Shown here: in pieces, positions 2,353-19,174 of the stretch
Layout of the letters: each line of letters opens with the position of its first letter
Numbering within the stretch: position 1 is the first letter of the stretch
Assembly (NCBI GenBank): GCA_017477845.1
Contig: JAFUTR010000017.1
Span: 447-64,446, forward strand
DNA length: 64,000 nt
Reading direction: 5' to 3'
Source of the DNA: Bacilli bacterium
Lineage (GTDB): Bacteria; Bacillota_I; Bacilli_A; RF39; UBA660
The notes under the pieces: generated by a model
What the model saw: the letters and a program-made list of their open reading frames with translations, nothing else
Databases searched by the model: none
What the model was told of the DNA's origin: nothing
Made by a program: the position numbers and the translations under genes

Positions 2353-2483
2353 ATTTTTTAATGCATAAATGATCGCAATATTACTATTTTACGAATTATA
2401 TATTCCCTTATTTTACCTTTTAAAAATATAATGATCTAAAACTGATCTAAAGTCTTTTTTTAAGTGTTTTTTAGAAAAAGAAA

Positions 2484-2521
2484 AACTCGTGTTTTCCTTT
2501 ATTTATAGGACTTTACGAGTT
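2484..2521 (-). terminator. intrinsic terminator attached to the orphan secA tail
   Basis: AACTCGT (2484-2490) pairs with ACGAGTT (2515-2521), with an inner TCCT/AGGA pairing. It is followed on the minus strand by a T-rich run (A-run 2474-2483 on plus) and overlaps the orphan stop codon at 2520-2522. Confidence 0.6.
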
Positions 2522-2563
2522 ATTTACCACAACATTGCTTATATTTACGACCACTGCCACATG
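2520..2563 (-). pseudogene. secA: displaced 3' end of secA (zinc-finger tail remnant)
   Basis: The minus-strand translation reads ..ACGSGRKYKQCCGK*, the SecA C-terminal zinc-binding motif. No secA body lies upstream of it. Compare the live secA tail [15 protein letters not shown] at 16685-16730. Confidence 0.65.
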
Positions 2564-2695
2564 CGAGCCAAATTAGTATATTTTCCATATTTATAGTATT
2601 ATGGATATTTCCTTTATTTTCAAGGGTTTGTGGACAGGTAATTTTTTGTATTTTTTGTACTATTTTTGCCATTTTTTATATAAAATATTCATCTA

Positions 2696-2715
2696 ATGTG
2701 CACAAAATGTGCACA
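2696..2715. repeat. left-arm tandem TGTGCACA palindromes (candidate integrase arm or regulator sites)
   Basis: ATGTGCACAAAATGTGCACA is identical to 16606-16625. The neighbouring CCTTTATTTTCAAGGG (2611-2626) resembles 16556-16570. Confidence 0.5.
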
Positions 2716-3061
2716 AATCCTAGCATATCCTATATTTTCTTTGTCATTTACATTATATATAATAATCAATATTTAAGCAAATCTATTTTTTGTTGTTGTA
2801 TATGTTTGAATTTTACTATTCTCAATTAATTAAATCTTGATACATCTCCATTAGTTTGGAAACGCATTCTGATTCAGTGGTTCTAATTCCAAAATTGTAT
2901 GCTTCCATAACTGCTTTGTCATTAAGTTGGTGAGCAGTTCTTAATTTTATCTTTTCTTTCTCTTTCTAAAGCCATTTAACACCCCTCACATGTAATTATA
3001 TCATAAAAAAAACAGATTTTTACATCTGCTTATTGTTCGTAATATCTTAATCTTTGCGATT

Positions 3062-3280
3062 TTAATATACTCTTTTATTTAAATCTATTGCATGTAATTG
3101 TAATTTAATTATTATTTGACTTATCTCACTATCAGAAAACCCTAATTGTTTTAGTTCTTTTCTTTTCATCTTCCATAAGTCTTTAATTATTCTTATATCT
3201 TTTTCTTTAAGTTTATTTATAATCTTATTGTTAAGTTGTAATTCCTCTATATTTTTTTCTAAAATCATAGTACATACCAT
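3062..3280 (-). CDS. stand-alone RNA polymerase alpha C-terminal-domain-like (helix-hairpin-helix) protein
   Basis: 72 aa. IEELQLNNKIINKLKEKDIRIIKDLWKMKRKELKQLGFSDSEISQIIIKLQLHAIDL follows the RpoA-CTD pattern IEELxLSxRxxNxLKxxxIxTxxDLxxxxxxELxxxxNxGxKSxxEI. Its ATG abuts the stop of the CarD-like gene. Confidence 0.55.
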   Translation of the reverse strand: MVCTMILEKNIEELQLNNKIINKLKEKDIRIIKDLWKMKRKELKQLGFSDSEISQIIIKLQLHAIDLNKRVY

Positions 3281-3775
3281 CTATTTAATTAATTCTTGAA
3301 CTTTATTGATGATATATTTTTTTGTTTCATCAAAAGTCATATTTAATGCTATTGATAATTCATTATACAAATATTGTTCAGCTTTATTGAAATAGTTTGA
3401 ATCTTTATCGCTTATTTTTTTCTTATTATTAATTCTTTCTTCATTTCTTAAATATGCGGTTTTAATTATCTTTATTAGATCTTCTTGAGTTCCATTATAA
3501 ATTAAGTCTTTATATGTATTTTCAATATATCTATCTTCAATGTTTTTTAGTGGTTCTATATTCGGAATATTATTTATAAGTTTTTCAGCTTCTTCTTTAC
3601 TAATAATATCTCTTATATAACCCATTCTATTATCAGCAGGAACATCAATTATTAATGAATCATCGTCTATTGGAACTAATATATAATAATCTAATCCATT
3701 CATTTTATTTTTCTTTACTTCTCTTACTTTGCATACATCCTTTTTGTATACTAAATAATCATTTGCCTTATACAT
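3281..3775 (-). CDS. CarD/CdnL-family RNA-polymerase-binding regulator
   Basis: 164 aa. The N-terminal region (YKANDYLVYKKDVCKVREV..YYILVP) resembles the CarD_CdnL_TRCF RNAP-interacting domain, and the helical C-terminal half and overall size fit the family. GGAGGG precedes the ATG. Confidence 0.7.
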   Translation of the reverse strand: MYKANDYLVYKKDVCKVREVKKNKMNGLDYYILVPIDDDSLIIDVPADNRMGYIRDIISKEEAEKLINNIPNIEPLKNIEDRYIENTYKDLIYNGTQEDLIKIIKTAYLRNEERINNKKKISDKDSNYFNKAEQYLYNELSIALNMTFDETKKYIINKVQELIK

Positions 3776-3800
3776 CTTATCCCTCCTTTAATTGTTTTAG

Positions 3801-3928
3801 AAAATAAAAATACGCAAGTCCTTATACAATCGGACTTACGCATTATTGCTACACTTGAATATAATTGACTTAAATATACCTCTTAACAATTAAATTATAT
3901 CACTTTTTTTATTATTTCGTAAGTTTAG
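3801..3928 (-). promoter_or_regulatory. promoter plus leader cassette, copy 1 (upstream of the CarD-like operon)
   Basis: On the minus strand: TTACGA (3917-3922), 17-bp spacer, TGaTATAAT (-10 at 3894-3899), a ~50-nt leader, then a terminator-like hairpin. About 130 bp is homologous to 5969-6100. Confidence 0.55.
3803..3841 (-). terminator. leader hairpin plus U-tract (attenuator or intercistronic terminator), copy 1
   Basis: RNA GCGUAAGUCC-GAUUGUAUAA-GGACUUGCGU forms a 10-bp stem (two G-U pairs) at 3812-3841, followed by AUUUUUAUUUU. It lies 36 nt before the CarD-like start codon. Confidence 0.6.
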
Positions 3929-3932
3929 AAAT

Positions 3933-5942
3933 TTATTTTTTATCTTCACTAAGAATAATATTTTTAATCATTTCAGCTGTTTCTTCAACTCCAAGTTTAT
4001 CTACATTAATAGCTAAATCATAATTTTCAAATGAATTCCAATTTTTATTAGTAAAATGATTATAATGCTTTGCTCTTTGTTTATTAATTTTATTTATTTC
4101 TTTTTCAGCTTTATTTTTATCTAAACCATAATACTTAACTACTCTTTTAATTTTTGATTCAATGTCTGAATATAAGAATATTTTAATAACATGTTTTCTA
4201 TTTCTTAAAACATAGTCAGCACATCTTCCTACTATAACACATGGTTCTTTCTTAGCTAACTCTTCTATTATTCTTGATTCTGATTCAAATAGTTTATCAT
4301 CATTTGTATAATAAATACTTGATTTAACACTTTGTTCTTCATTTTGTTCAATATAATTTTTATTAAATCCAAATTCTTTTGAAGTTAATTTAATAATCTC
4401 TTTATCATAGAAATTAATACCTAATTTTTCTGCTAATAACTTACCAACAAAATGTCCTCCAGATCCGTATTCTCGCGAAATAGTTATTACTACTTTATTA
4501 TTTAATAATGATTTGCCTAATTTTAATTTTTCATCTTCTATGATTGTTTCTTTTGTTAGATTATCCATCTGTTTAAATTCTTGCTTAAGTAAAATTACTC
4601 CTGTAATAAATGCTAATACATCAGCTATAATTGCACTCCATAACATTGTTACTACACTATGAGATAAATTAGCAATTATTATAATTGAAGGAACAAAGAA
4701 TATTACATCTCTTGCAAGAGCTAAAATTGTTGATTTTAAACTTGATCCCATTGATTGTAATAATATAGATATAGATTTAATTAGACAAGTTAATACTATT
4801 CCTCCTAAGAATATTCTTAAACAATAATATGCAAATTCCATATATTCAGTTCCATTACCGCTACCAAACATATTGATGATAAATCCAGGAAATAATTCAA
4901 ATATAACAAATGCTATGAATCCTATTATTAAATTAGTAATTAAAATATATTTAACTGTTTCTTTAACTCTTTTTGTATTTCCTGCTCCCATGTTATATCC
5001 AATAATAGGCATTCCACCTAGTGATACTCCAATTACTATTGATACTACTATTCCAAATACTTTCATGCAAATTCCTATAACTGCCAAAGGAATAACCGCT
5101 CCATAAGGAGCGCCAGTTGAAGCCATTGTCATATATCCATACTTACTTACTAGATTATTAGCTACAGCAATAATAACAACTATTGCAAGTTGGGTAATTA
5201 AAGAAGCAAGTCCTAAAGATATTGCTTTTAAACAAATACTTTTATCTAACTGCATTGATTCTTTATTAACTTTAAATTGTTTTGATTTTTTTAGATAATA
5301 AATACTAATTATGAATGTTAAAATTTGACCTATTATAGTTGCAATAGCTGCACCCTTAACACCCATTTTAAATACAAATATAAATATTGGATCAAGTATT
5401 ATATTAGATATTGCACCAACTATTGTTGCAACCATTGCATACTTTGGACTTCCATCATTTCTAATAGATGCATTTAATCCTTGACCAATAATATAAAATG
5501 GTAAACCATAACAAATTATTCTTAAATAATCTTTTGCATATTGATAACATTCAACTTCATTAGGATTACCACCAAAAATACCTAATATTTGTTTACTAAA
5601 TACTAATCCTATAACAGTTAAAACTATAGAAATAAATATTAAAAGGATTAACCCATTTCCTATAGACTTATTAGCCTTTTCTTTATCTTTTGCACCTAAA
5701 GATAAACTAAATAGTGCTGCTGATCCATCTCCAATTAATAAGGCAAATGCAAGTGATATAACAGTAAACGGATAAACTATATTAGTTGCTGCATTACCAA
5801 ATGCTCCAGCTTCACTCCAACCTATAAATATTTGATCCACAATATTATATAGTGCTGCAACTATCATGCTTATAACACATGGTATTGCAAATTTTTTAAT
5901 TAATTTAGGAATTCTTTCTTTTCCTAAATCTAGTTCTTTCAT
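3933..5942 (-). CDS. MATE-family efflux transporter fused to a C-terminal cytidylate-kinase-like (Cytidylate_kin2-type) domain
   Basis: 669 aa. The first ~450 aa are polytopic with MATE-like features (IPCVISMIVAALYNIVDQIFIG...). Residues ~480-669 (VVITISREYGSGGHFVGKLLAEKLGINFYDKEII...GRCADYVLR...) match the soluble cytidylate kinase-like family. Confidence 0.7.
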   Translation of the reverse strand: MKELDLGKERIPKLIKKFAIPCVISMIVAALYNIVDQIFIGWSEAGAFGNAATNIVYPFTVISLAFALLIGDGSAALFSLSLGAKDKEKANKSIGNGLILLIFISIVLTVIGLVFSKQILGIFGGNPNEVECYQYAKDYLRIICYGLPFYIIGQGLNASIRNDGSPKYAMVATIVGAISNIILDPIFIFVFKMGVKGAAIATIIGQILTFIISIYYLKKSKQFKVNKESMQLDKSICLKAISLGLASLITQLAIVVIIAVANNLVSKYGYMTMASTGAPYGAVIPLAVIGICMKVFGIVVSIVIGVSLGGMPIIGYNMGAGNTKRVKETVKYILITNLIIGFIAFVIFELFPGFIINMFGSGNGTEYMEFAYYCLRIFLGGIVLTCLIKSISILLQSMGSSLKSTILALARDVIFFVPSIIIIANLSHSVVTMLWSAIIADVLAFITGVILLKQEFKQMDNLTKETIIEDEKLKLGKSLLNNKVVITISREYGSGGHFVGKLLAEKLGINFYDKEIIKLTSKEFGFNKNYIEQNEEQSVKSSIYYTNDDKLFESESRIIEELAKKEPCVIVGRCADYVLRNRKHVIKIFLYSDIESKIKRVVKYYGLDKNKAEKEINKINKQRAKHYNHFTNKNWNSFENYDLAINVDKLGVEETAEMIKNIILSEDKK

Positions 5943-5968
5943 AAACTATACCTCCACAATTATTTTTG

Positions 5969-6100
5969 AGCATAAAAATACGCAAGTCCTGGTACAATTG
6001 GACTTACGCATTAATGCTACTCATTGACTATAATTGACTTAGTATATTTTTTCTCAACGAAGTAAATTATATCACAAATTTAAAGTTTTCGTAAGTTTGA
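5969..6100 (-). promoter_or_regulatory. promoter plus leader cassette, copy 2 (upstream of the MATE fusion gene)
   Basis: On the minus strand: TTACGA (6089-6094), 17-bp spacer, TGaTATAAT (-10 at 6066-6071), leader, hairpin. It is homologous to 3801-3928. The promoter hexamers are conserved while the spacer sequence differs. Confidence 0.55.
5971..6009 (-). terminator. leader hairpin plus U-tract, copy 2
   Basis: RNA GCGUAAGUCC-AAUUGUACCA-GGACUUGCGU (5980-6009) followed by AUUUUUAU. It lies 37 nt before the MATE start codon. Confidence 0.6.
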
Positions 6101-6139
6101 TTTAAATTTTTAGCATAATGTCTTAATCTTCCGATTAGT

Positions 6140-6916
6140 TTAACCTAATGCCACGTCAAGAATCATCATTATAATGAATCCAAATGAAAAACCTAGTGTT
6201 CCTAAATTAGAATGTTTACCTACTTGAGATTCTGGTATTAATTCTTCTACTACTACATATATCATTGCTCCTGCAGCAAATGATAATAAATAAGGTAGTA
6301 TAGGAACTACTAACGAAGTTAATATAATTGTTATTCCTCCAAAGATTGGTTCTACAATACCAGATAATGTTCCATATAAGAATGATTTACTTTTAGAATT
6401 ACCCTCCTCTTTTAATGGCATTGATATTATTGCTCCTTCAGGGAAATTTTGAATAGCAATACCTATTGATAATGCAATTGCCCCAGCAATTGTAATAGTG
6501 CTATTACCACTAATTGCACCTGCTAGTGCTACTCCAACTGCCATTCCTTCTGGGATATTATGTAGTGTTACTGCTAAGACCATCATTGTTGATTTTCCTA
6601 GATTTGATTTCATTCCTTCCGGCTCTTTACTTTTAACGTGTAAGTGAGGAATTATATTGTCTAATATAAGTAAGAATATTATACCTAATATAAAGCCAAT
6701 TGTTGCTGGTAGCCAAGCTATTATATTTTGTTCTTTTGCCATATCAATTGACGGAATAATTAAAGACCAAACTGAAGCTGCCACCATCACTCCTGATGCA
6801 AATCCTAATAATACTTTTTCAACTTTTTCATTTAATTTGTTTTTCATTAGGAATACCATTGCTGATCCTAATGTTGTTCCTATAAAGGGAATAATTAGCC
6901 CAAGAAATAGATTCAT
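6140..6916 (-). CDS. ZIP-family (ZupT-like) divalent metal transporter
   Basis: 258 aa, polytopic. Motifs HNIPEGMAVG and QNFPEGAI are typical of ZupT/ZIP. It follows the permease gene after 9 bp. Confidence 0.8.
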   Translation of the reverse strand: MNLFLGLIIPFIGTTLGSAMVFLMKNKLNEKVEKVLLGFASGVMVAASVWSLIIPSIDMAKEQNIIAWLPATIGFILGIIFLLILDNIIPHLHVKSKEPEGMKSNLGKSTMMVLAVTLHNIPEGMAVGVALAGAISGNSTITIAGAIALSIGIAIQNFPEGAIISMPLKEEGNSKSKSFLYGTLSGIVEPIFGGITIILTSLVVPILPYLLSFAAGAMIYVVVEELIPESQVGKHSNLGTLGFSFGFIIMMILDVALG

Positions 6917-6925
6917 TATATCACC

Positions 6926-9304
6926 CTATTCATTACCTTTTAAACTTGTAACCATATCTATTTTCTTAATTTTTCTTGCTAAGAATTTAGATACTAGGTA
7001 TGAAACTATAAACGTTCCTATAGCTGCAATAATATAAGTTCTTGTAGTTATGAATGCACAAAAATCATAGTGTTCTTCAATTGCTGTTTTAAATAACCAA
7101 TCAGTTAAATAGAATCCTGCAGGTAGTCCAATTATTATTGAAATTATTGCTATCCAATTGTTTTGTTTAATAAAAATATTTTCAATTTGTTTATCTTTAA
7201 ATCCTAATACTTTTAATGTTGCAAATTGATACTCTTTTTCTGTATAAGAAAGTATTCCTAAGTTATATATGATTACACTGCCAAGAAGTATGGCAATACC
7301 AATAATCATTATTAGCATTGTTCTCATCATAGATAACATACCTGTCATTCCTTCTTTTAGACTATTAATATTTTGAATTGTTTCAATGTTTTTTATTTCT
7401 TTCGTTTTGCTTAAATCATTATTTGTATATAATGCATCTGGTTTATATTCTATTCCTAATGATTCAAGATATTTTTTAGTCATAGATACATTTTGATTTT
7501 GAGGGTCTTTATTAAATCCTATAATTTTTGATTTATAATATTTACTATCACCATAAATATGCCACTCTATTTCATCACCTAATTTGTAGTTATTAGTTTC
7601 TGCTAATTTATATGTAACATAAATACCATCATCTGTTGGCTTATCTTTAATTTTATTTTTATTATCCACGAATCTTAAATAATCTCCAGCATTTGTTACT
7701 AAAATGTTATTTGATTCTCTTTTAGCATTTTTATCTCTTATTTCAATTCCTATACTTTGAGAAGTCTTGCTTCCATATTTTTCATATAAAGAATTATATT
7801 CTTCGTTACTGATACCTTCTTTTATATTTAATTTATAATCAAAATTATACAAATCTTCAAATTGTAATTTTACAAAGAAGTTCATTGAATCTAACATACC
7901 AAATGAACATACTATTAAGGCACAGCATCCAACCACTCCTGCAAGTCCCATAAATGTTCTCATTTTATTTCTTAAAATATCCCTTAAATTCCATTTTGAA
8001 GAAAAACTTAATTTCTTAAACAATCCTTTTTTAGTTATATTTAAAGCTTTACCTTTAACACTTGGTATTTTTGTTCTTAATGTTTCTGCAGGATTTTCTT
8101 TTAAGATACTTCTACAAGTTATAAATGTAATAAATGCTACTGCAAGAACTACTATAGCAGCCACATAGTAACAAGAACTATCCATAGCAGGATGACCATT
8201 TGGTATTTCAAAGAAATCCATTTCTGTTCCTATAAATACATTACCAATAGCAAAGTATCCTAATACCAATCCTACTACACTAGCTATAACGCTAATCCAA
8301 AATCCGTAACCTATATAATGAAGTAATATTCTTCTATTACTAAATCCTAATGCTTTTAATGTTCCTATTTGCGTTCTTTGATTCTTAACAACTCTAGTCA
8401 TTGTTGTAATAACTGATAGCATTGCTATGAATAAGAAGATTCCCGAAAAAACTCCTACATACGTTTTTCCTTCATCTATTTCTCCTTGATAAGCAACATA
8501 AGAAGATGTATCTTCTACATTTATAATTGCTTTGGCATTTTCTACCTTGTCTTCGATTGTCTCTTTAACCTCATCTACTTTACTTTTATCTTTAACATCT
8601 ACCATAATACTTGAAAATGGTATATAGTCTTTATATTTAAAGTTTGGCATTATCATTTTAAATACATTTTCATCAGTAATGTTTGCTTCATTCATAACTA
8701 ATGATTTAATATAATCTTCTGTTATTTCATTTGTGCTCATATAAGCGAAACCAAATTCTTTTCGATCTGGATATAATTCGGACTCATCTCTTACATCATA
8801 TAAATGATCTGGTACATTAATTCTACCTAATACTTTTTCATACAATTCCATTCCATCATATTTTACTAGTACAGTATCTCCAACTTTTATATCATTTTCT
8901 AACGCATAAAAATTATCTAACCAAATACCAGATTTGTTAACATCAAATTTTTCTCCTTCAAAAACATAAAACTTTGAAATATTATTTGATTCAATGAAAT
9001 TTAACAATAAAGTTTTATCATTGTCTGTCGTAGCTGTCACTGATAATTTAAGTTCAGCATCATTTACATTATTTAATCCCTTAATAGTTTTTAAATCATC
9101 ATGGTTTAAATATCCCATTACACTTAAATCATATAGGTTATTTTCTGAATAAAACTTATCTGCTGTTTCTTGCATACCACCCATATATGCTTTTATTCCA
9201 GAATAAGCCATTATTCCTATCATAACCATTAAAAAGATTGTTATAAATTGAGATAAATTCTTACGAATATCTCTTAACATTTTTCTTTTTAACATAATTA
9301 CCAC
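6926..9304 (-). CDS. ABC transporter permease with two FtsX-type domains (MacB/YtrF-like)
   Basis: 792 aa. It has two 4-TM blocks separated by large extracytoplasmic domains. Its start overlaps the stop of the ATPase gene. Confidence 0.8.
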   Translation of the reverse strand: MVIMLKRKMLRDIRKNLSQFITIFLMVMIGIMAYSGIKAYMGGMQETADKFYSENNLYDLSVMGYLNHDDLKTIKGLNNVNDAELKLSVTATTDNDKTLLLNFIESNNISKFYVFEGEKFDVNKSGIWLDNFYALENDIKVGDTVLVKYDGMELYEKVLGRINVPDHLYDVRDESELYPDRKEFGFAYMSTNEITEDYIKSLVMNEANITDENVFKMIMPNFKYKDYIPFSSIMVDVKDKSKVDEVKETIEDKVENAKAIINVEDTSSYVAYQGEIDEGKTYVGVFSGIFLFIAMLSVITTMTRVVKNQRTQIGTLKALGFSNRRILLHYIGYGFWISVIASVVGLVLGYFAIGNVFIGTEMDFFEIPNGHPAMDSSCYYVAAIVVLAVAFITFITCRSILKENPAETLRTKIPSVKGKALNITKKGLFKKLSFSSKWNLRDILRNKMRTFMGLAGVVGCCALIVCSFGMLDSMNFFVKLQFEDLYNFDYKLNIKEGISNEEYNSLYEKYGSKTSQSIGIEIRDKNAKRESNNILVTNAGDYLRFVDNKNKIKDKPTDDGIYVTYKLAETNNYKLGDEIEWHIYGDSKYYKSKIIGFNKDPQNQNVSMTKKYLESLGIEYKPDALYTNNDLSKTKEIKNIETIQNINSLKEGMTGMLSMMRTMLIMIIGIAILLGSVIIYNLGILSYTEKEYQFATLKVLGFKDKQIENIFIKQNNWIAIISIIIGLPAGFYLTDWLFKTAIEEHYDFCAFITTRTYIIAAIGTFIVSYLVSKFLARKIKKIDMVTSLKGNE

Positions 9305-9999
9305 TTAACCTCATCAATATTTTTTGGATGTTTATTTAATTCATTAGAAACAACTTTTCCATTCTTTATTCTAATAACTCTATCTGCTATATCAGCAATT
9401 AAAGAGTTATGTGTAACTATGATTACTGTTGTATCTTCATCACTTTGTTTTCGAAGTAATTTTAATATTTCAACACCTGTTTTAGAATCAAGTGCACCAG
9501 TTGGTTCATCACATAATAATACTTTAGGATTTTTCATTATTGCTCTTGCAATGGATACTCTTTGTTGTTCTCCACCTGATAATTCTTGAGGAAATTTATC
9601 AACATGTTTTATTAATCCTACACTTTTTAATACTTCTTTTGAATCTTTTGATGTATTTGTAACATCTTTAATTAAATTAACATTTTCATCTACCGTCAAA
9701 GTTGGCATTATATTATAAAACTGAAATATAAATCCAACATCATGAGCTCTATATCTTGTTAATTCACTATCATTAAATTTAGCTATATCATCTTCACCAA
9801 TCATTATTGATCCTGATGTTGCCTTATCCATTCCGCCCAACAAATTAAGTAATGTAGATTTTCCTGCACCAGATGGTCCAAGTATAACTACAAACTCTCC
9901 TTGATTAATACTTAAATCTATTCCATCTAAAGCATTAAACTTTTGCTCACCTACTGTATAAGTCTTTTTTACATTTTTTAGTTCTATAAAATTTTTCAT
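9298..9999 (-). CDS. ABC transporter ATP-binding protein (MacB/LolD-like)
   Basis: Walker A GPSGAGKST, signature LSGGEQQR, Walker B LLCDEPTGALD. I moved the start to ATG 9999 (MKNFIELKNV), which has AAGGA upstream. The track start at 10029 lacks an RBS. Confidence 0.85.
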   Translation of the reverse strand: MKNFIELKNVKKTYTVGEQKFNALDGIDLSINQGEFVVILGPSGAGKSTLLNLLGGMDKATSGSIMIGEDDIAKFNDSELTRYRAHDVGFIFQFYNIMPTLTVDENVNLIKDVTNTSKDSKEVLKSVGLIKHVDKFPQELSGGEQQRVSIARAIMKNPKVLLCDEPTGALDSKTGVEILKLLRKQSDEDTTVIIVTHNSLIADIADRVIRIKNGKVVSNELNKHPKNIDEVKW

Positions 10000-10069
10000 T
10001 GTATCCTTCTTTCTAAATGTGAAATACATTTCATATTAAGTATATTTCTTATTTTTAAAATAGTCAACT

Positions 10070-10097
10070 AAAAATATGAATATTATTTCATATTTTT
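10070..10097. promoter_or_regulatory. palindromic candidate TetR operator in the divergent promoter region
   Basis: AAAAATATGAA-TATTA-TTCATATTTTT has 11-bp perfect arms. It lies between the ABC operon start and the TetR gene, just upstream of TGtTATACT (extended -10) for the TetR gene. Confidence 0.5.
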
Positions 10098-10135
10098 AAA
10101 ATTTGTGTTATACTCTACTTACGAGGTGAACATCT

Positions 10136-10747: not shown

Positions 10748-10976
10748 CTAAATCGTTTTTTGTTCGCAATATTACTAATTTCCGAGCAAATTACGTTTCA
10801 TTTTAAGTAATTTGAAATTAAAAATACGTGGCACGTTTTGTTGCTTTAGCAATGAAAGTGGCGATAGTATTTTTTCTTTTTTATGAATCTCGATGATGAA
10901 ATAAAAAGGCACCTTTACTACTTACGAATGTTTGTAGTATTGGTGCTTAATGGGATTCCAAAGGGTTTATCCTTGG

Positions 10977-11016
10977 CACACATTGTTATTGGCTCTGCCA
11001 ATATCATAGTGTGTTA
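10977..11016 (+). other. candidate oriT (MobV/pMV158-type hairpin and nick region)
   Basis: Imperfect 17-bp inverted repeat CACACATTGTTATTGGC-TCT-GCCAATATCATAGTGTG, followed by TTA. ATAGTGTG/TTA resembles the pMV158 nick region as I recall it. A second long hairpin lies at 10907-10948. Confidence 0.4.
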
Positions 11017-11038
11017 CTATCTTGTCATAAAGATAGTC

Positions 11039-12220
11039 TTATAAAGAATGACCATCATCTCTACTCTTTTCTTTATATGGTTTATAATCATTACCTAATA
11101 TATTATGTATTTCTTCTTCCTTTTTCTTTGATATTAATCCATCTGCTACTAAATGATAGAAGAAATTTGATACTCTCTCTATTGTCCTTTTTAAAACGGT
11201 TATTGTATTTTCAAGTATTGATACTCTATTTGATAACTTTGTGTTTTGAAATTTTAAGGTTTCATTTTCATCCTTTAAATCATAGTTTTCTTGTTGTACT
11301 TTTGAATATGTACTTATCTGTTCTTTCATTGCTTTATATGTATTATCTAACTTAGGTTTCATTTCACTTATTTTTTTAGACTCTTCTATTACCTTATTCA
11401 TACTATCAAATGTATCTTTTTTTATCTTAATTGATTCTTTACCAAACAATACAGGTTTATTAGATTCTATTTTTACTTCTAAATCAGTAATAGCTTGATC
11501 TAGTTTATTACTTCTATTTGTTAATTCTTTATTTACTTCTTGTGTTGCTCTTTTAAATTCTTTCATATTTAAGTGTTCTACTGCACTATGTTTTTGACCT
11601 CTTTCTAGGGCAAATCCGCCTAGATTTAATAATTCACAATAATTATCTTGTAATTCACTTAAATGCTCTTTATCGTGGATATATTGCTTTTTAGAGATGG
11701 TATATCGTTCAGTCGATGTCCTTTTATCAAACTTTTTTATCAAAGGAACTACTACACAATGTATATGAGGTGTTTTTTCATCCATGTGTAATGTTGCATG
11801 TAATATTTGTTCATCTTTATATCCTAAATAATCTTTTACAAATGCCATACAATACTCTGACCATTCTAGTACCTTTTCTTTTGGCATATCATTAAAGAAG
11901 TTGTGAGAAGCAGTAAATATCATTTCATCTGCTACAACACTTTTGGATTTATCTACCATTTGTCTAAATGTTCTTCTTCTATCTTCTCTTTCAGATTTCA
12001 TTCTTTCTTCGTGTTCTTTTTTATATTCTTTTGTTATTTCATAAAAGCCTTTAACATATTTCATATTTAATGGAACAAGTTCTACATTATCTTTAGTTTT
12101 TGATAAGTCTATATCTGGATTTGAATTATATGCTTTCTTTTCTCTTTTATTGTGAGAGCCAATTTGAGCTAGATCATTTAAAGTATAGATAGGTTCACTT
12201 CTGAATATTGCGTAATTCAT
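11039..12220 (-). CDS. MobV-family (Mob_Pre) relaxase
   Basis: 393 aa. Motif I is HNKRE. Motif III is HMDEKTPHIHCVVVP (HxDExxPHxH). The C-terminal half is coiled-coil. It overlaps the integrase stop by 4 bp. Confidence 0.75.
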   Translation of the reverse strand: MNYAIFRSEPIYTLNDLAQIGSHNKREKKAYNSNPDIDLSKTKDNVELVPLNMKYVKGFYEITKEYKKEHEERMKSEREDRRRTFRQMVDKSKSVVADEMIFTASHNFFNDMPKEKVLEWSEYCMAFVKDYLGYKDEQILHATLHMDEKTPHIHCVVVPLIKKFDKRTSTERYTISKKQYIHDKEHLSELQDNYCELLNLGGFALERGQKHSAVEHLNMKEFKRATQEVNKELTNRSNKLDQAITDLEVKIESNKPVLFGKESIKIKKDTFDSMNKVIEESKKISEMKPKLDNTYKAMKEQISTYSKVQQENYDLKDENETLKFQNTKLSNRVSILENTITVLKRTIERVSNFFYHLVADGLISKKKEEEIHNILGNDYKPYKEKSRDDGHSL

Positions 12221-13500
12221 ACTGTTTCACCTTCTTTAATTTGAAATCCTATTACATTTTTTATAACATCAGTTGTATTTTTACTATCAAATTCATTAAC
12301 TGCTAATCTTTTATTATCTTCTATACTTCTAATGTAATAATTCTCAGTTGTTTCTACATTTCTATGTCCTAATAGATCTGCCACTTCTTTAATCTCTGTT
12401 CCATTATTTAATACTTTAGTTACATATGAACCTCTTAAATCGTAAAATCTACATTTCTTAATTCCTAATTCTTCATGAATTACTTTAAATGGATATCTTA
12501 ACAAATCTGTTCCTGAATATGTTCCATTATCACGAACAAATACTAAATCTAAATTATTTTCTCCGCAGTTTTTGTTTAAAACTATTCTATTCTCTATTAC
12601 TTTTCCATATTCATTTTTCACTTCTTCAATATGATAATATTTATAATCTTTACCAAATAAGTTTTTTAATTCTTCTTGTCTTTCTTTGTAGTTAGTTAAA
12701 GCTGTTTTTAAAGTATCTCCTATGTATATAGTTCTTTGCCCTGATAGTGTCTTTGTTGTACCAATATACCATCTTCCATCTTTATCTTTTGGTTTATCAT
12801 AAACACTATGTTTAATGTTGATTATTCCTTTTTCTAAATCAATATCTTCCCATGTTAATGCAAATAGTTCTCCTGTTCTCATTCCAGTAAAGCATGCTGT
12901 TAAGAAAGCACATATAAATGTAGAATCATCTTTAAATCTATTTAGAATCAAATCTATTTCTTCTTTTGTGTATAGATGTTTATCTTCTTTTTTCTCAGCA
13001 TCCATTTTAGGCATTCTAATTGTTAATGCTGGATTATATTTAATAAATCCATATAAATTACATGCATCTCTAAATGATCCTTTAATAATCTTTAACATAT
13101 TTCTAAAGTAATCTCTTGAAAAATCATATCTATTAACTAAATCAGTAATAAAAGAATTTAAAGTTAAACTTGTTATATTACACATTCTATAATGTCCTAT
13201 ATAGGGTTTAATATATTTTTTTGATAATGTTGTATATGTTTGAATAGTATTGTATTTCAAATTGTTTTTACAATAATTATCAATCCAATAATCTAAATAA
13301 TCACTATATGACATTTTGCATACTTTGAATGGTTTACCTGCATTTATATATTCATTGAATGCAATTGTTCCAGCTTCTAAAGCTTCGGCTTTGGTTTTAA
13401 ATCCACTTTTATTAATATATTTTCTTTTACCATTTTCACTTGCTATTTCAAATCTATATTGATAAACATCTTTTCTTTTTGTTATTCTTATACTACTCAT
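12217..13500 (-). CDS. tyrosine site-specific recombinase/integrase (internal copy)
   Basis: 427 aa. The N-terminal arm-binding-type domain is YQYRFEIAS..YINKSGF. Box I is TGMRTGEL. The C-terminus is YDLRGSY...LLGHRNVETTENYY. Confidence 0.85.
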   Translation of the reverse strand: MSSIRITKRKDVYQYRFEIASENGKRKYINKSGFKTKAEALEAGTIAFNEYINAGKPFKVCKMSYSDYLDYWIDNYCKNNLKYNTIQTYTTLSKKYIKPYIGHYRMCNITSLTLNSFITDLVNRYDFSRDYFRNMLKIIKGSFRDACNLYGFIKYNPALTIRMPKMDAEKKEDKHLYTKEEIDLILNRFKDDSTFICAFLTACFTGMRTGELFALTWEDIDLEKGIINIKHSVYDKPKDKDGRWYIGTTKTLSGQRTIYIGDTLKTALTNYKERQEELKNLFGKDYKYYHIEEVKNEYGKVIENRIVLNKNCGENNLDLVFVRDNGTYSGTDLLRYPFKVIHEELGIKKCRFYDLRGSYVTKVLNNGTEIKEVADLLGHRNVETTENYYIRSIEDNKRLAVNEFDSKNTTDVIKNVIGFQIKEGETV

Positions 13501-13726
13501 TTTCTACCTCTACTTGAATAACTACTTTTCTAATATTATTAAGGTCAGATAGATCCTTTCCTTCATTTTGAATTAAGAATCTTTCTAAAGTGGTTTTTAG
13601 AACTTTTAAGCTTCCTAGTTTAATAGCTGGCAAATAACCTTTTCTAATCAATTCATAAATATAATTTGGGCTAGAATGAAGAATACTAGCAACTTCCTGA
13701 ACGGTGTATATTAATCTTTCTTCCAT
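13493..13726 (-). CDS. excisionase-type helix-turn-helix DNA-binding protein
   Basis: 77 aa. YTVQEVASILHSSPNYIYELIRKGYLPAIKLGS is the excisionase/MerR-like HTH_17 pattern. It lies immediately upstream of, and overlaps, the integrase gene. Confidence 0.7.
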   Translation of the reverse strand: MEERLIYTVQEVASILHSSPNYIYELIRKGYLPAIKLGSLKVLKTTLERFLIQNEGKDLSDLNNIRKVVIQVEVENE

Positions 13727-14214
13727 TATTTAAACTCCGCTAATAAAGCATCCATCTCTGCTTGTTCTTCTGGAGTACATGGAGTTGAAGTACACATTTC
13801 AGGATGTTTCATCCATTCAGGTATATTCTCTTCATTATTATTCTTTTTATTATATTTATTATTATATTTGACTGAATAGTCTAGGTTTTCTTGATTATTT
13901 GATTCATGATCTGATGACCATTTGCTCCATATATCATTGACTAAGTGAATTATCCTTTTCTCCCTTTGATGATCTTTCTCATATTCACATTTAATTAATC
14001 CCATTTTTTCTAGTTTTTTAATATGTCTTGATGCTGTTTCAAGTCGTATATTATACATTTCTGATAGTTTTCTATTTGTTATCCAACAATATCCTTCCTT
14101 TCTGCATAATGCTATGATTCGCTCAGCAATCAGTTTTTCTTCTGGTGTAAGTTGTTTTGTTTCATATATATATTTTGGTACTACCGCATATATCATTATG
14201 TAATCGTTTTCCAT
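13726..14214 (-). CDS. winged-HTH protein (replication-initiator- or regulator-like)
   Basis: 162 aa. LTPEEKLIAERIIALCRKEGYCWITNRKLSEMYNIRLETASRHIKKLEKMGLI resembles the HTH_36/DnaD-like N-domains of element replication proteins. It is the first gene of the xis-int-mob operon. Confidence 0.45.
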   Translation of the reverse strand: MENDYIMIYAVVPKYIYETKQLTPEEKLIAERIIALCRKEGYCWITNRKLSEMYNIRLETASRHIKKLEKMGLIKCEYEKDHQREKRIIHLVNDIWSKWSSDHESNNQENLDYSVKYNNKYNKKNNNEENIPEWMKHPEMCTSTPCTPEEQAEMDALLAEFK

Positions 14215-14353
14215 AATCTTTCTCCTTTTCTAAATTACTGAACTTCGGCCTCTGTTCACTTCCATTATCTAGGAGATTGATTATATATACCATGCGAAAA
14301 AACTCTACAAATTGTCTTGCAGAGTTCTATATTTACTCCGAAAAAACTCCGGA

Positions 14354-14965
14354 TTAATTTTCGATTGTTACAATATTCTTACTAATGTATTTTTTTAGTT
14401 CTGATACTAAAATAGTATCCATTTTTATTTCATCCATAAGTCCTAATTGCAAAGCCATTTTTATATAAGCGCTTTTCTTTGATCTATAGTATTTATCTTT
14501 ATGTATTTTAGTTTCAAATATTATTATTTCATCTGTTAGTGGTTTTGGTTTATCATATTCAAAGTTTTTGATAACATATTTTTCTATCTCATCTAAATTA
14601 TAAAATGAATCTCTTACTCTCATTAATAAATGCTCACATAAGTCTATAGATTTTTTATAGTCTTTTTTAGTAAATCTTTTAAAAGAGATTTCACTTCCTA
14701 GTTTAAGATTATTTTCGTTGATATTTTTAATTTTCAACGAAGGATCTTCAACTATAACAAACTCCAAATCTTCTGTAATTGTATATTTCAAATATTCTTG
14801 GTACACGGCCTGCTCAAAAAAATTATCTTGTAGTTGTACAAATATGTTGTGAATGTCTTTCATTACCTCTTTATGATCATACTCTTTTATTATTGCTTCT
14901 GATAATGGTCTTTGTACTTCTAATAAGGTTATATCTAATTTTCCTTCTTCATCTCGCGCAATCAT
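14354..14965 (-). CDS. hypothetical protein (orphan cargo between the two integrase modules)
   Basis: I moved the start to ATG 14965 (MIARDEEGKL), which has AGGAGG 5 nt upstream. No family recognised, no TM segments. Confidence 0.5.
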   Translation of the reverse strand: MIARDEEGKLDITLLEVQRPLSEAIIKEYDHKEVMKDIHNIFVQLQDNFFEQAVYQEYLKYTITEDLEFVIVEDPSLKIKNINENNLKLGSEISFKRFTKKDYKKSIDLCEHLLMRVRDSFYNLDEIEKYVIKNFEYDKPKPLTDEIIIFETKIHKDKYYRSKKSAYIKMALQLGLMDEIKMDTILVSELKKYISKNIVTIEN

Positions 14966-15149
14966 TCCAAACCTCCTAACAAAAAAGAGAGAAAAAGACA
15001 TTAAAGTCAATTTCTCTCATTGAATCCATTAATTAATAAACTAAATTGTTTTCGTGTATAAATTAAAAGTGCTTTATTTCTCATTAGACATCAGCTCCAA
15101 TTAATTAATTGTCTTCTATAATAACACTTTTTTCTTAAAAATCAAGGTT

Positions 15150-16463
15150 TTAGTCTTTAAAAGGTATTTCTTTTGTATCTGGTATATCTAAAGTGTTGGT
15201 ATAATCTTCAAATTTATCAACCGTATCAGTTTCCATTTTATCAGTTACTCTTACATAAATGTTATATGTAGTCATAATAGAAGAATGTCCTAATCTTTTT
15301 GAAACAGCTTTTATATCTGCTCCTTGTTCTATCAGTCTTGTGGCATGTGTATCTCTAAAATCATGGAATCTGCATGGTATTTTTAATTCATAATTTATTA
15401 CTTTAAAAGCATGTCTTGTAGTTTCGGTTCCTCTATATTGTCCATTAGGCTTAACAAATATTAATTTTGCCTCTGGTAAATTTAGTTCTAGTTCTGCAGG
15501 TGCATCAACAATCTTGATTTCTTTCCTTTCTGTATGTGGATTTATTACTTCTTTTTCGTAATGTTTTAAATAAGCATCCCCATAGAACTTTATATATTCT
15601 TCTTGTTCTTTTTTATATTCTTTTAATGCTTTAATTAGTGTATCTCCTATACCTATAGTTCTATTTGATTGAGGATTCTTACATGTTCCATAATACCATT
15701 CTTCTACTGAATGTCCTTTTGTTATTACATATTTTTTAGGTAATTGATGTTGATTCTTTTTTATAATATTTTTGTTTACTGTTAATGTTTTCTTTTCAAA
15801 GTCTATATTATCCCACGTTAAAGCATAACATTCTGATACACGTAGTCCAGTATAATAAGCTGTTAAGAATGAATAATAGATATATGGTACATCTTTAAAT
15901 CTTTCTAGTATTATTTCAAACTCTTCTTGAGTAAAAATATGTGCTGGATCTCCTGTAACCACATCATATTTTGGGATATGTACTCTTTCAGCTGGATTAT
16001 CATTTATAAAATTAACTGTATAACATGCATATTTAAGCGATCCTTTTATTAATTTTAATATTCCTTTTAGATAATGCTTTGAGTAATGCTTTTCTTTATA
16101 TAGTTTATTAATATAGTTTTGTATTGTATAAGAATCTAGTTGAGTTAATTTATACATTCCTAATTCTGGCTTTAAATGATTTTTAATAATATTTAAATAA
16201 GATGCTATCGTCGCATATTTAACATTGAAGTAGCAATAATTAGTCATCCAGTAGTCTAAATAGTCTTCATATGACATATCCTTAATCTTTTGTTTTCTTC
16301 CAGTCCTAAAATATTCATTATAAGCAATAGCTCCTGCTTCTTGAGCTTCTTTTCTCGATTCGAAACCACTTTTATTAATATACCTTCTTACACCTCCTCT
16401 TGAAGCAATCTCAAATCGATATTGATAAACCTTTCCCCTTTTCATAATTCTAATCTCTGACAT
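15150..16463 (-). CDS. tyrosine site-specific recombinase/integrase (junction-proximal copy)
   Basis: 437 aa. Box I is TGLRVSEC. Box II is HDFRDTHATRL...LGHSSIMTTYNIYV. The N-terminal 89 aa share 56 identities with the other integrase by my manual alignment. Confidence 0.9.
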   Translation of the reverse strand: MSEIRIMKRGKVYQYRFEIASRGGVRRYINKSGFESRKEAQEAGAIAYNEYFRTGRKQKIKDMSYEDYLDYWMTNYCYFNVKYATIASYLNIIKNHLKPELGMYKLTQLDSYTIQNYINKLYKEKHYSKHYLKGILKLIKGSLKYACYTVNFINDNPAERVHIPKYDVVTGDPAHIFTQEEFEIILERFKDVPYIYYSFLTAYYTGLRVSECYALTWDNIDFEKKTLTVNKNIIKKNQHQLPKKYVITKGHSVEEWYYGTCKNPQSNRTIGIGDTLIKALKEYKKEQEEYIKFYGDAYLKHYEKEVINPHTERKEIKIVDAPAELELNLPEAKLIFVKPNGQYRGTETTRHAFKVINYELKIPCRFHDFRDTHATRLIEQGADIKAVSKRLGHSSIMTTYNIYVRVTDKMETDTVDKFEDYTNTLDIPDTKEIPFKD

Positions 16464-16537
16464 AATGTTCCCTGTCCTTTCTTATTGAACAAAGAAAAAC
16501 TAGCAATTCAAATGCTAGTTTCATTATTTCACAAAAA

Positions 16538-16670
16538 TGTGCACATTATATAATCCCTTTATTTATAAGGTTTTTAAGAGATTATTTTGAATATTTTATA
16601 CTTTTATGTGCACAAAATGTGCACATTTGAGAAAATTGGTGCTTTTTTTGTGCACATAAATTTTCTCAAA
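16538..16670. repeat. right-arm cluster of TGTGCACA palindromes plus a 12-bp inverted repeat
   Basis: TGTGCACA occurs at 16538-16545, 16607-16614, 16618-16625 and 16649-16656. The perfect inverted repeat TTTGAGAAAATT (16626-16637) / AATTTTCTCAAA (16659-16670) brackets the last one. All lie between the integrase start and the secA stop. Confidence 0.55.
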
Positions 16671-16684
16671 GCCTTATTTTACGG

Positions 16685-19174
16685 CTATTTTCCATGACAT
16701 TGTTTGTACTTCTTACCTGAGCCACATGGACATGGATCATTTCTTCCAATTTTTTCCTTTTTTGTTTTTTTAGCAACTGCATCTTTTCCATCATTTGTTA
16801 TCTTGTTTTTTGCAACTTCCTTTCTTTCAATGTTTTGCTTGATTTCAGCACGCATTAAGAAAGCGGTTACTTCTTTGTCAATTTTTTCATTCATCTCATC
16901 AAACATCTGGAATCCTTCAACAGTGTATGCAGTTAATGGATCTGTTTGTCCATAACTTCTTAAATGAATTCCTTCTCTTAAATGTGACATAGTATTTATA
17001 TGTTCTGTCCAATACTTATCTATAATATTAAGAGTAATTACTTTTTCAAATTCATCGCTTATTTCTTTAGGAATACTCTTTATCTTTTCTTCGTATTCTT
17101 CTACTAAGTGATTATAAATTAAATCAATTATTTCATCCTCTTTTTTATCATATAAAATTTTCGCATCTATATCTTTTTTAAGTAATCTTTCATTAACTGT
17201 TGCTACTATTTCATTTATATCTTCTTTTGTTAGTTTTGTTTCTACTTGTAAGTGTGACATTACAAGTGTTGTAATATAATTCTTCATTATATCCAAAACG
17301 GTTGAATGAATTGATTCATTATCTAGTATTTCATTTCTTCTACCATACATTATTTTTCTTTGATTATTCATTACTTCATCATAATTAAGTAATTGTTTTC
17401 TTATATCAAAGTTGTTTCCTTCAACACGTGCCTGCGCAGTTGTTAGAGCTTTAGAGAATGTTTTACTTTGTATTGGCTGATCTTCTTTTAAACCTAAAGT
17501 TTGCATCATTCTTTTTATTCTTTCACTTCCAAAACGTACCATCAATTCATCTTCCATTGAGACATAGAATTGAGTAAATCCTGGATCTCCTTGACGTCCT
17601 GATCTTCCCCTTAACTGGTTATCAATACGACGTGATTCATGACGTTCTGTACCAAATACACAAAGTCCTCCAAGTTCTTTTACACCTTCACCAAGTTTAA
17701 TATCTGTTCCACGTCCTGCCATATTTGTTGCAATTGTAACAGAACCTTTTTCTCCTGCTTTTGCAATTATTTCTGCTTCCCTAGCATGATTTTTAGCATT
17801 TAATACTTCATGTGGAATTCTTCTTTTATTTAAAAGATTATCAATTAATTCATTTGTTTCAATTGCAATTGTACCAACAAGAACTGGTTGTCCCATTTTA
17901 TGACGTTCTTCTATTGCATCTATTAATGCTTTATATTTTCCTGCTTGTGTAGAATATATTAAATCTGGTTCATCTTTTCTTATTACTTCTTTATTTGTTG
18001 GAATACAAATAACGTACATATTATATATATTTCTAAACTCTTCTTCTTCTGTTTTAGCAGTTCCAGTCATACCAGAAATTTTCTTATACATTCTGAATAA
18101 GTTTTGAAATGTTATTGTAGCAAGAGTTTTTGTTTCTTGTTGAATTTTTACTCCTTCTTTTGCTTCTATTGCTTGATGAAGTCCATCACTATAAGCACGG
18201 CCTTTCATAAGACGTCCAGTGAATTGGTCAACAATTACAATTTCTCCATCTTGCACTACATAATCCACATCATTTTTCATACTATAATTTGCTTTTAAAG
18301 CCTGATTAATAAAATGAACTAATGTAGTTTGTTCAAGGTCATATAAATTATCAACCCTAAAATGTTTTTCTGCTTTTTTAACTCCTTCTTCAGTTAATGT
18401 AACTCCTTTTGTTTTTTCATCATATAAATAATCATCATCTTCTTTTAAACTTTTAACAAATGAATCTGCATCCATATAAAGTGATGCACTTTTCATTTCT
18501 CCACCAGAAATAATAAGTGGAGTTCTTGCTTCATCTATTAAAACTGAGTCAGCTTCATCTATTATTACAAAGTTTAGGCCACGTTGAACTCTATTTTCTT
18601 TTTTTACTACCATATTATCTCTTAGGTAATCAAATCCAAGTTCATTATTTGTTGAATATAAAATATCGCAATTGTATTGTTCTTTTTTCTCACTTGGAGA
18701 AAGTGCTCTTAAGTTTGTTCCTACACTTAAACCAAGAAATCTATGGATGCTTCCCATCCAATTACTATCACGATCTGCTAGATATTCATTAACTGTTATG
18801 ATATGTACGCCTTCTCCAGTTAAAGCATTCAAATATGCTGGCATTGTTGCAACAAGGGTTTTTCCTTCACCTGTTTTCATCTCTGCTATATTTCCATAAT
18901 GAAGTGCAATACCTCCAATTATTTGAACCCTAAAAGGTTTAAGCCCAATTACTCTATATGCTGCTTCTCTTACTGTTGCAAATGCTTCAGGCAATAAATC
19001 ATCAAGTGTTTCACCATTCTTTAGTCTTGTTTTAAACTCTTCTGTTTTTGCCTTTAATTCATCATCACTTAACTTTTGATATTCTTCATCTAATACTTCA
19101 ACTTTATCTGCAATTTGCGAAAATTTCTTTAATTCTTTATATTCATGATCAAATAATTTTTTTAGTATATTCAT
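16685..19174 (-). CDS. secA: preprotein translocase ATPase SecA
   Basis: 829 aa with canonical SecA sequence throughout ([38 protein letters not shown]) and a C-terminal zinc motif [15 protein letters not shown]. Confidence 0.97.

Follow-up and report, generated by a model that had tools for sequence, protein, structure and literature searches.

A second secA tail downstream of secA

The DNA analysed here, called the window below, is a 64,000-nucleotide stretch of contig JAFUTR010000017.1 (assembly GCA_017477845.1, positions 447 to 64,446) from a Bacilli bacterium of the RF39 lineage, and our subject is the element that lies within it at the 3' end of secA. The live secA gene occupies 16685..19174 on the minus strand and encodes 829 amino acids; the protein is an exact match to P0001, which carries the NCBI name SecA and has a SEC-C Pfam match on record. 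On the same strand, at 2520..2555, lies a displaced secA tail, SGRKYKQCCGK*, with no secA body upstream; read from 2563 to 2520, the strand gives W-L-A-C-G-S-G-R-K-Y-K-Q-C-C-G-K-stop (..ACGSGRKYKQCCGK*). A degenerate SecA-tail pattern had just two matches in the 64 kb, both on the same strand, and none in 100 shuffles. The sequence, its translation and this search confirm the orphan second tail that an earlier note on this DNA had described. The two tails share, as that note also reported, the 8-mer GCCACATG (plus strand; CATGTGGC on the minus strand) at 2556-2563 and 16721-16728, and the full target GATCCATGTCCATGTGGC is present as a single copy in the window.

The orphan tail sits in a 50-amino-acid open reading frame (ORF) at 2520-2672, which is a chance frame spanning the junction: equivalent tails elsewhere have in-frame stops upstream. 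Its amino acids (GSGRKYKQCCGK, with an uncommon Arg) are those of the tail of P0003, the closest non-identical SecA, and the Arg is also present in locus L051. The final 11 codons and stop of the live gene (16685..16720, minus strand) are supplied by the element; an identical tail also terminates other host secA bodies and adjoins other elements at their right ends. This replacement tail swaps the zinc ligand pair CC for CH, changing a CxCx8CC finger to the CxCx8CH form of the E. coli SecA. The idea that CHGK tails mark occupied and CCGK tails empty secA genes was dropped when the CCGK tails of L070 and L071 proved to precede integrases.

Immediately 3' of the orphan tail is a hairpin followed by a U-tract (2484-2521; -12.1 kcal/mol, z = -2.7). 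The earlier note called it a strong terminator; hairpin and U-tract are present, but the stem is interrupted and a simple terminator scan did not call it. The hairpin belongs to a block past the displaced tail (2365..2521, minus strand) that also contains direct repeats TTAGATCAG and TTAGATCAT (2431-2450), a promoter-like site (2424-2395) and the motif CGTAAAATAGTAATATTGCGA (2365-2388), and that represents either the native flank or a second element's left end.

The junctions map to a core within the SecA zinc-finger codons

The core CATGTGGC lies on the minus strand at 16721..16728 (left attachment site, attL), where the crossover region covers the SecA zinc-finger codons P-C-G, and at 2556..2563 (attR). 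Among all fetched loci, CATGTGG is present at 60 of 67 tail junctions, the rest being one- or two-base variants. Two host secA genes, encoding 829 and 830 amino acids, differ up to GGWAGAAATGATCCATGTCCATGTGGC and are identical beyond it. In L009, where another insert of 1.55 kb separates secA from the element, the window is matched at 74.7% identity as far as 16722 and at 96.9% from 16729 onward; in L014, L015 and L024, where the right ends of other elements precede the left end of this one, identity starts at 16732 and 16731. The host variant CCATGCCCATGT (L023, L025, L027) puts the exchange to the right of the C in that variant, and the first tail difference (GGC-TCA versus GGC-AGT, GGA-AGT or, in L009, GG-TTT) bounds it at CATGTGG(C).

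At the other end, L053 and L054 have a right end that is 97.5% identical to window 2467-2946 and is joined at CATGTGG to the flank of another host. That flank is 95% identical to the unoccupied secA locus L068, with the match beginning at the first base of the core, and the 830-amino-acid secA of L068 continues directly into an orphan-type tail. As judged from these alignments, L068 and L053 are an occupied-versus-empty comparison from another host species; an unoccupied secA with its tail is likewise known from L060. Both window junctions recur in independent ENA, Logan and NCBI assemblies. The earlier note had proposed crossover at the 8-mer and site-specific integration with an element-supplied tail. 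The former is upheld by identity breakpoints that fall within a few bases of the core in other loci, and the latter by the presence of the same element behind different host secA genes and by the L053/L068 pair.

The element encodes two integrases, an excisionase and a relaxase

The gene nearest to secA encodes Int1 (15150..16463, minus strand), a 437-amino-acid tyrosine recombinase identified by PF00589 (E = 2e-26), PF14659, PHROG phrog_1 and alignment to PDB structures. It starts 221 bp from the secA stop codon, matching the distance of about 220 bp from the right junction given in the earlier note. The catalytic set of Int1 is complete (R208, H367, R370, H393 and Y403, by alignment to 3nkh), and the C-terminal part of the protein can be aligned with PDB 3nkh and with two structures of Tn1549 Int, 6emz and 6emy. 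Int1 is followed on the minus strand by a backbone ORF of 218 amino acids (14354..15010; 203 amino acids elsewhere) that is 40-99% identical beside Int1 in relatives and had no match in Pfam, NCBIfam or PHROG scans; by a 162-amino-acid winged-helix protein resembling replication initiators (13726..14214; Pfam HTH_36 and PHROG replication-initiation families); by a 77-amino-acid excisionase (13493..13726; PF12728, and TIGR01764 at 32.1 bits against a cut-off of 28.8); by Int2, a 427-amino-acid paralogue 42% identical to Int1 (12217..13500; PF00589, E = 1e-18); and by a 393-amino-acid MobV relaxase (11039..12220; PF01076, E = 3e-27, and NF041497 at 112.9 bits against a cut-off of 100). Int2 has R208, R356, H379 and Y389, with Y353 in place of the HxxR His. 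Pfam and NCBIfam matches thus bear out the second integrase, xis and MobV that the earlier note had listed.

All backbone genes are intact, and a 290-nt non-coding stretch 3' of mobV (10748-11038) is kept in relatives. All ORFs of at least 70 amino acids in 2564-16720 were listed and all except the ZIP transporter were domain-scanned; type IV secretion or coupling-protein domains were not found among them. Judged by its gene content, the element is a canonical MobV-type integrative and mobilizable element (IME). The window contains no tRNA or tmRNA gene, and the attachment site is therefore not of the tRNA type. There is no contrast in GC content or skew between island and flanks, and an Rfam scan of 1-22000 at E <= 0.1 returned nothing. 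Taken together, we conclude with a probability of about 0.88 that window 2564-16720 is a 14.2-kb IME inserted in the zinc-finger codons at the secA 3' end.

Putative arm sites vary with the integrase

The palindromic octamer TGTGCACA occurs at 16538-16545, 16607-16614, 16618-16625 and 16649-16656 in the left, integrase-proximal arm (16464..16684, minus strand) and at 2697-2704 and 2708-2715 in the right arm (2564..2758, minus strand). These are the only six copies in 64 kb, against 0.44 expected, and all lie at most 190 nt from the cores. An identical 19/20-mer, GTGCACATTTTGTGCACAT, is present in both arms (2696-2714 and 16606-16624; 0.01 expected). It corresponds to the 20-mer noted earlier, but of the related segments of about 110 bp that were described around it, the remainder is A+T-rich similarity of doubtful significance. 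The left arm also contains a terminator-like hairpin ahead of int1 (16496-16522), and the right arm is kept at 88-97% identity in L027, L033, L039 and L053.

Between the tail and the integrase gene, all integrase clades have two copies of a 7-11-nt word, spaced with an 11-bp period, about 60-75 nt past the stop codon, together with more copies upstream and inverted copies downstream. The word is TGTGCACA where the integrase is at least 95% identical to Int1, TTTGTCCAC at 72-76% identity, TGTCCAC at 66%, TGTTTGTAAA at 61% and CCTCAT / AATGAGG at 52%. A conserved position combined with a sequence that co-varies with the integrase clade is what would be expected of an arm-type integrase site, and we infer that the TGTGCACA repeats are putative Int1 arm-binding sites.

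Int1-type integrases adjoin secA in many hosts

A search with Int1, limited to one genome per species, returned 27 loci. Relatives 52-100% identical to Int1 lie 220-250 bp past secA in L023, L026-L029, L031-L036, L041, L043, L070 and L071; a 38%-identical relative, in L044, lies away from secA. In the scan loci, Int1-type integrases adjoin secA in more than 14 metagenome-assembled genomes, and because their SecA proteins are just 48-71% identical to that of the window, these hosts belong to different genera of Bacilli, Erysipelotrichaceae and Clostridia from gut and rumen. A public assembly collection contains the exact Int1 protein in 51 blocks and, among the matches listed, the protein follows secA everywhere that upstream DNA reaches. 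Int1 is 99.5-100% identical in hosts whose SecA proteins are 64-71% identical, with alignments of secA plus backbone at 88-90%; near-identical integrases despite divergent SecA indicate recent transfer. The part that belongs to the element shows 97% identity in L009 and L014, and the secA segment of L009 about 75%.

In L034-L036 and L041, an Int1-type integrase is found at secA without Int2, Xis or MobV, which ties the Int1 type to this gene. Complete relatives of the element lie between a live and an orphan tail in L027 (10.4 kb), L033 (9.9 kb) and L039 (7.1 kb). Their backbones match the window from secA to about 10764-10820 and their right arms match 2758-2564, with different cargo in between; the two-integrase backbone is kept as a unit at 73-83% nucleotide identity across hosts.

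Cargo genes and internal boundaries

The accessory cargo reported earlier comprises seven genes at 3062-10747. On the plus strand is a TetR gene (10136-10747), and on the minus strand are genes for an ABC ATPase (9298-10029), an FtsX/MacB-type permease (6926-9304), a ZIP transporter (6140-6916), a 669-amino-acid fusion of MatE with a C-terminal cytidylate-kinase-like domain (3933-5942), a CarD-like protein (3281-3775) and a 72-amino-acid RNA polymerase alpha-CTD-like protein (3062-3280). These were assigned by Pfam, using precomputed matches for the ZIP transporter, except for the CarD-like protein, whose matches are weak and sub-threshold. The MatE/cytidylate-kinase-like fusion is unusual cargo, and the adjoining CarD-like and alpha-CTD-like pair might influence transcription in the host. 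Two copies of a module of about 140 nt lie at 3790-3930 and 5958-6100 (87% identity over 63 nt, with additional similar pieces); one comes after the ZIP gene and the other after the MatE gene, which places them upstream of the MatE and CarD-like genes. Each contains a perfect terminator hairpin, GCGTAAGTCC..GGACTTGCGT, and then a T-run; having no Rfam match over its 63-140 nt, the module is not a known riboswitch.

Beyond the cargo, 2823..3054 (minus strand) is the remnant of an MmeI-type restriction-modification gene. In L053 (202-2967), an intact 921-amino-acid MmeI-type (type IIL) gene, with its MmeI domains confirmed, lies between matches to window 3054-2936 and 2946-2467. The window keeps just the two ends of this gene, and its copy has therefore undergone an internal deletion.

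The backbone/cargo boundary carries the motif TCGGAAATTAGTAATATTGCGA (10762..10785, minus strand), close to 10764, where similarity to L027 and L028 stops, and a 14-mer of this motif recurs at 2373-2386. Both belong to an imperfect palindrome, TCG(G/T)AAAWTAGTAATATTGCGA, found on the minus strand at 10762-10785 and 2365-2388, the borders between backbone and cargo and between the block past the displaced tail and variable genes. Both window copies sit just beyond the stop codons of two TetR genes, and further copies are present elsewhere (L028:17168, L053:5331, L059:759, L052:3265 and L067:881). The palindrome could be a second recombination site, a site resembling an origin of transfer (oriT), or an operator.

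The secA end is an accretion hotspot

An exact 36-mer consisting of the orphan tail and 9 nt past its stop codon occurs in 18 metagenome contigs. What abuts it there at CATGTGG is either a SecA body, 69-83% identical to that of the window, or one of many unrelated sequences. Eighteen kinds of right end abut the core, and nine loci have two or three tails, in a set of 67 tail junctions. Units of 0.8-1.6 kb without an integrase are present in L009, L057, L061, L063, L065, L066 and L067, and serial units at secA were found in L009, L043, L057, L061, L065, L066 and L067. What separates L057 from L060, two loci of one species (96.6% identical), is a 0.8-kb insert that has no integrase and carries a tail of its own. 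The secA end is thus an accretion hotspot.

The 200-bp block that contains the displaced tail, the hairpin and the TTAGATCAG repeats in the window opens a phage-like unit in L067 and L072. In L067 this unit is 10.5 kb long, has a reversed 376-amino-acid integrase and ends at another orphan tail; further copies of TTAGATCA(G/T) lie next to the integrase and in the right arm, immediately ahead of the orphan tail that follows. Displacement of a tail by the element, as claimed in the earlier note, stands, but that the displaced tail is the original, ancestral one is uncertain, since the same block opens a phage-like element in these two loci.

Phage-like elements past secA in close relatives of the host (L051:12616-22490, L072:12770-22493 and L067:986-10688) carry reversed integrases of 373-376 amino acids and phage replication genes, with S24 repressors in L051 and L072 and, in L072, a methylase/endonuclease set of DpnII type; their integrase is a second, unrelated family that uses the same region. 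The insert in L009 (2823-4367; 1.55 kb, integrase-less) encodes a DnaJ-domain protein and a 93-amino-acid ORF and has TTAGATAAG repeats at both ends. It brings no proper tail, and the SecA of L009 therefore ends ..PCPCGLDNFTSKKAFR*, without two zinc ligands; this protein has no SEC-C match on record. L061 (tails at 5551, 3972 and 2811), L066 (8139 and 6966), L063, L065 and L067 (11197 and 12682) contain arrays built of 1.2-1.9-kb units, each of which starts with a secA tail and has one or two genes. A 289-amino-acid GNAT-ASCH protein in L068 is an example of a unit gene. Recurrent right ends, such as AAYTTTAAAAGGAAAAAATT..CGCCATGT, are attached to different cargo, a layout like that of cassette arrays. 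In addition, all independent host assemblies break 450-570 bp left of the window start (contig ends in L001, L004 and L006), which suggests that a repeat, or a junction that varies between strains, lies shortly beyond the window on its left side.

A broader reading, which we offer tentatively and consider rather less than evenly likely, is that the secA 3' end in gut and rumen Firmicutes serves as a docking site with many users, somewhat like a cassette array, in which integrase-less units are perhaps moved in trans by Int1-family integrases. The users would be IMEs, an element resembling integrative and conjugative elements (ICEs), phage-like elements and the 0.8-1.6-kb integrase-less units, each unit opening with a secA tail, a hairpin, paired arm repeats and a promoter-like region and ending at CATGTGG. 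If so, a 'native' secA end would often be the left end of a former element, and each insertion would swap the metal-binding tail of SecA (CC/CH), which could alter SecA behaviour.

Evaluation of alternative explanations

Several observations weigh against the IME assignment. The empty host site predicted in the earlier note (secA, terminator, TetR) was not found: all contigs of the species and all of the checked relatives with visible downstream DNA are occupied, and exact look-ups of the host TetR, the 213-amino-acid secA neighbour and the 72-amino-acid cargo protein returned occupied loci only; a 164-amino-acid protein was not on record in an exact look-up. Nor was an empty secA present in five close relatives (SecA 88-90% identical). 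The contig of P0003 (L050) ends 10 nt past secA, P0004 and P0015 (L051 and L072) have a phage-like element with a reversed integrase downstream of secA, P0009 (L070) has an Int1-type element, 76% identical, at secA, and in P0017 (L071) the site is taken by an ICE-like element whose integrase is 61% identical and which also encodes ParA/ParB, a surface protein of SpaA type, a sortase and an SNF2 helicase. Neither a circular attP junction nor the element tail turned up in two scans of viral_contigs, the sole collection searched for the junction. No oriT was identified in the element and no nick site was assignable. The PF14657 arm-binding domain of Int1 scores 21.7 bits, under the cut-off of 22.3, and that of Int2 scores 30.1 bits, over it; the N-termini of the two proteins are closely similar. 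Finally, Int2 directly follows xis, the usual layout of an excision module, and an Int2-like pseudogene (51-54% identical) lies 234 bp past secA in L043, so that Int2 could be the working enzyme or a co-worker.

The last point can be extended to a model in which Int2 and Xis are the working recombinase and Int1 is a leftover of accretion whose internal att site has been deleted. The rep-xis-int2-mobV order with overlapping genes is typical of a recombination and mobilization operon, the L043 copy adjoins secA, and accretion with module deletion is documented (PMC5357655). This model is nevertheless unlikely in our estimation. Conservation of the two-integrase backbone across hosts argues that it is not a recent accident, Int1-type integrases occur alone at secA (L034-L036 and L041), and the arm repeats flank the Int1 gene, vary with the Int1 clade and are found in elements without Int2. 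Moreover, Int2 has Tyr for the conserved HxxR His, and the L043 copy is frameshifted. Less probable still is a fixed, immobile relic of an old vertical insertion. Every assembly of the host species carries the element, at least one internal deletion (the MmeI gene) has occurred, and the viral_contigs scans gave no circular form; against this stand the 99.5-100% identity of Int1 where SecA is 64-71% identical, the 97% identity of the L009/L014 element segment compared with about 75% for the L009 secA, and a backbone in which every gene is intact. That the locus reflects an assembly artefact or a chance duplication of the secA end we consider negligible. The source is metagenome-type assemblies, and an 8-mer common to two homologous 44-nt coding pieces is unremarkable by itself, but independent assemblies from ENA, Logan and NCBI all show both junctions, the core is common to 67 tail junctions of related loci, and the distance from secA to the integrase is constant.

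The remaining alternative refines the IME assignment: the tail at 2520-2563 may form the left end of a second element that targets secA, whether whole or a remnant, which would continue leftward past the window. We rate this tandem array and an ancestral tail as about equally probable; in the array, the first element would have entered the attL of the second, or the reverse would have happened. The wide range of sequences joined to the 36-mer tail in 18 metagenome contigs points to an array, as does the layout of the block, which is that of the integrase-proximal arms (tail, hairpin and, about 70 nt past the stop codon, a pair of 9-bp repeats spaced at an 11-bp period). The block opens the 10.5-kb unit of L067 with its reversed integrase, and similarly in L072; L057 and L060 diverge right after the hairpin; and host assemblies all break about 450-570 bp left of the window start. 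However, there is no integrase or further tail in the 2.5 kb left of the tail, nor in the 570 nt beyond in L004, and L060, where secA is followed by the block, shows no integrase over a further 2.3 kb. The uncommon Arg of GSGRKYKQCCGK, shared with P0003 and L051, fits a lineage-native tail.

Proposed mechanism of integration

The scheme that follows builds on the observed anatomy, junction positions, conserved integrase position, arm repeats and spread among hosts; the acting integrase, excision and mobilization are deduced from them. A lambda-type integrase, most likely Int1, would recombine attP with chromosomal ..GATCCATGTC-CATGTGG(C)-.., with strand exchange inside the 7-8-bp overlap CATGTGG(C), the secA codons Pro-Cys-Gly. 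Int1 would be positioned by the putative TGTGCACA arm sites, of which the left arm has four and the right arm two. Because the element carries the last 11 secA codons and stop beside the integrase gene, SecA stays full length, and the previously used tail and hairpin would be pushed 14.2 kb downstream. Transcripts of secA probably stop at the hairpin at 16496-16522, before int1.

Xis presumably directs the reverse reaction. The predicted attP of the excised circle is ..TTTGGCTCG-CATGTGGC-TCAGGTAAG.. / ..AATTTGGCTCG-CATGTGGC-TCAGGTAAGAAG.., and the predicted restored secA (attB) is ..CCATGTC-CATGTGGC-AGTGGTCGT.. / ..GATCCATGTC-CATGTGGC-AGTGGTCGTAAATA.. After excision, MobV would nick a putative oriT, and the circle would pass through the mating pore of a co-resident conjugative element. 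The presence of two integrases probably goes back to two secA-targeting elements that accreted long ago and lost the att site between them; streptococcal IMEs are described as having taken such a route, in which one module is deleted after accretion (PMC5357655). We found no separate att site for Int2: no repeats of at least 11 nt link the intergenic regions around rep-xis-int2-mob, and only the TCGCAATATTACTA motif is common with the host flank.

Relation to known systems and implications

MobV-type IMEs of Firmicutes, such as IMESag-rpsI, target the 3' ends of rpsI, rpmG, rplL, guaA and ebfC (PMC5704250, PMC5357655). The window element resembles them in having a tyrosine integrase adjoining the target gene, MobV without a mating pore, a size of the order of 10 kb, insertion at the 3' end of a conserved gene with the frame restored, variable cargo and frequent tandem accretion. 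Unlike them, it targets secA zinc-finger codons and has two paralogous integrases per backbone, and the hosts of its type are uncultured gut and rumen Bacilli and Erysipelotrichaceae. Accretion at a protein gene is also known from Streptococcus thermophilus, where ICESt1 and ICESt3 occur with cis-mobilizable elements (CIMEs) at the fda 3' end (PMC5704250, citing Pavlovic 2004 and Bellanger 2011). Compared with what that account gives, the site here is secA and the units include 0.8-1.6-kb integrase-less pieces with their own tail, hairpin, paired repeats and promoter-like region, for which mobilization in cis is putative.

The window integrases have the SAM-like core-binding and catalytic domains of lambda Int and of Tn916 and Tn1549 Int, together with an N-terminal arm-binding domain that in Int1 is a candidate, and the system shares with lambda-type systems repeated arm-type sites in both arms, a short overlap and a small HTH excisionase. 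In contrast to lambda-type systems, the arm site TGTGCACA is palindromic, and similarity of the window integrases to solved structures is confined to motifs; in contrast to Tn916 and Tn1549, the window element uses one specific target sequence. As in islands at tRNA, tmRNA and protein genes (Islander/TIGER; PMC12424338, PMC12884075), an element-borne 3' end rebuilds a conserved target, but here, unlike in tRNA- and tmRNA-gene islands, the restored part is protein-coding and one zinc ligand is changed from Cys to His. Of the genomic islands that have been catalogued, about 43% are found within protein-coding genes (PMC12424338). The gene secA is not among the targets listed in PMC5704250 and PMC5357655, and the literature searched, which did not extend to a query of the TIGER/Islander database itself, does not name it as an att site. 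The target gene thus appears to be undescribed, in keeping with the remark in the earlier note that secA is not known to be a commonly reported target, and the principle is familiar.

These findings add an essential, universally conserved protein gene to the short list of housekeeping att sites. For annotation, they are a warning that in these genomes the last 11 secA codons and the terminator are often element-borne and that a second 'SecA tail' marks an island boundary. Five integrase clades with one core site, one arm layout and differing arm repeats form a natural data set on integrase specificity, and integrases with a ready-made attB in the secA of uncultured gut and rumen Firmicutes could serve cargo delivery. 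The zinc-finger codons GATCCATGTCCATGTGG are almost invariant in DNA across genera whose SecA proteins are 48-71% identical to that of the window, so that one integrase family can enter many hosts; across these A+T-rich Firmicutes, near-invariance of the target codons would give such elements a wide host range, much as tRNA genes do.

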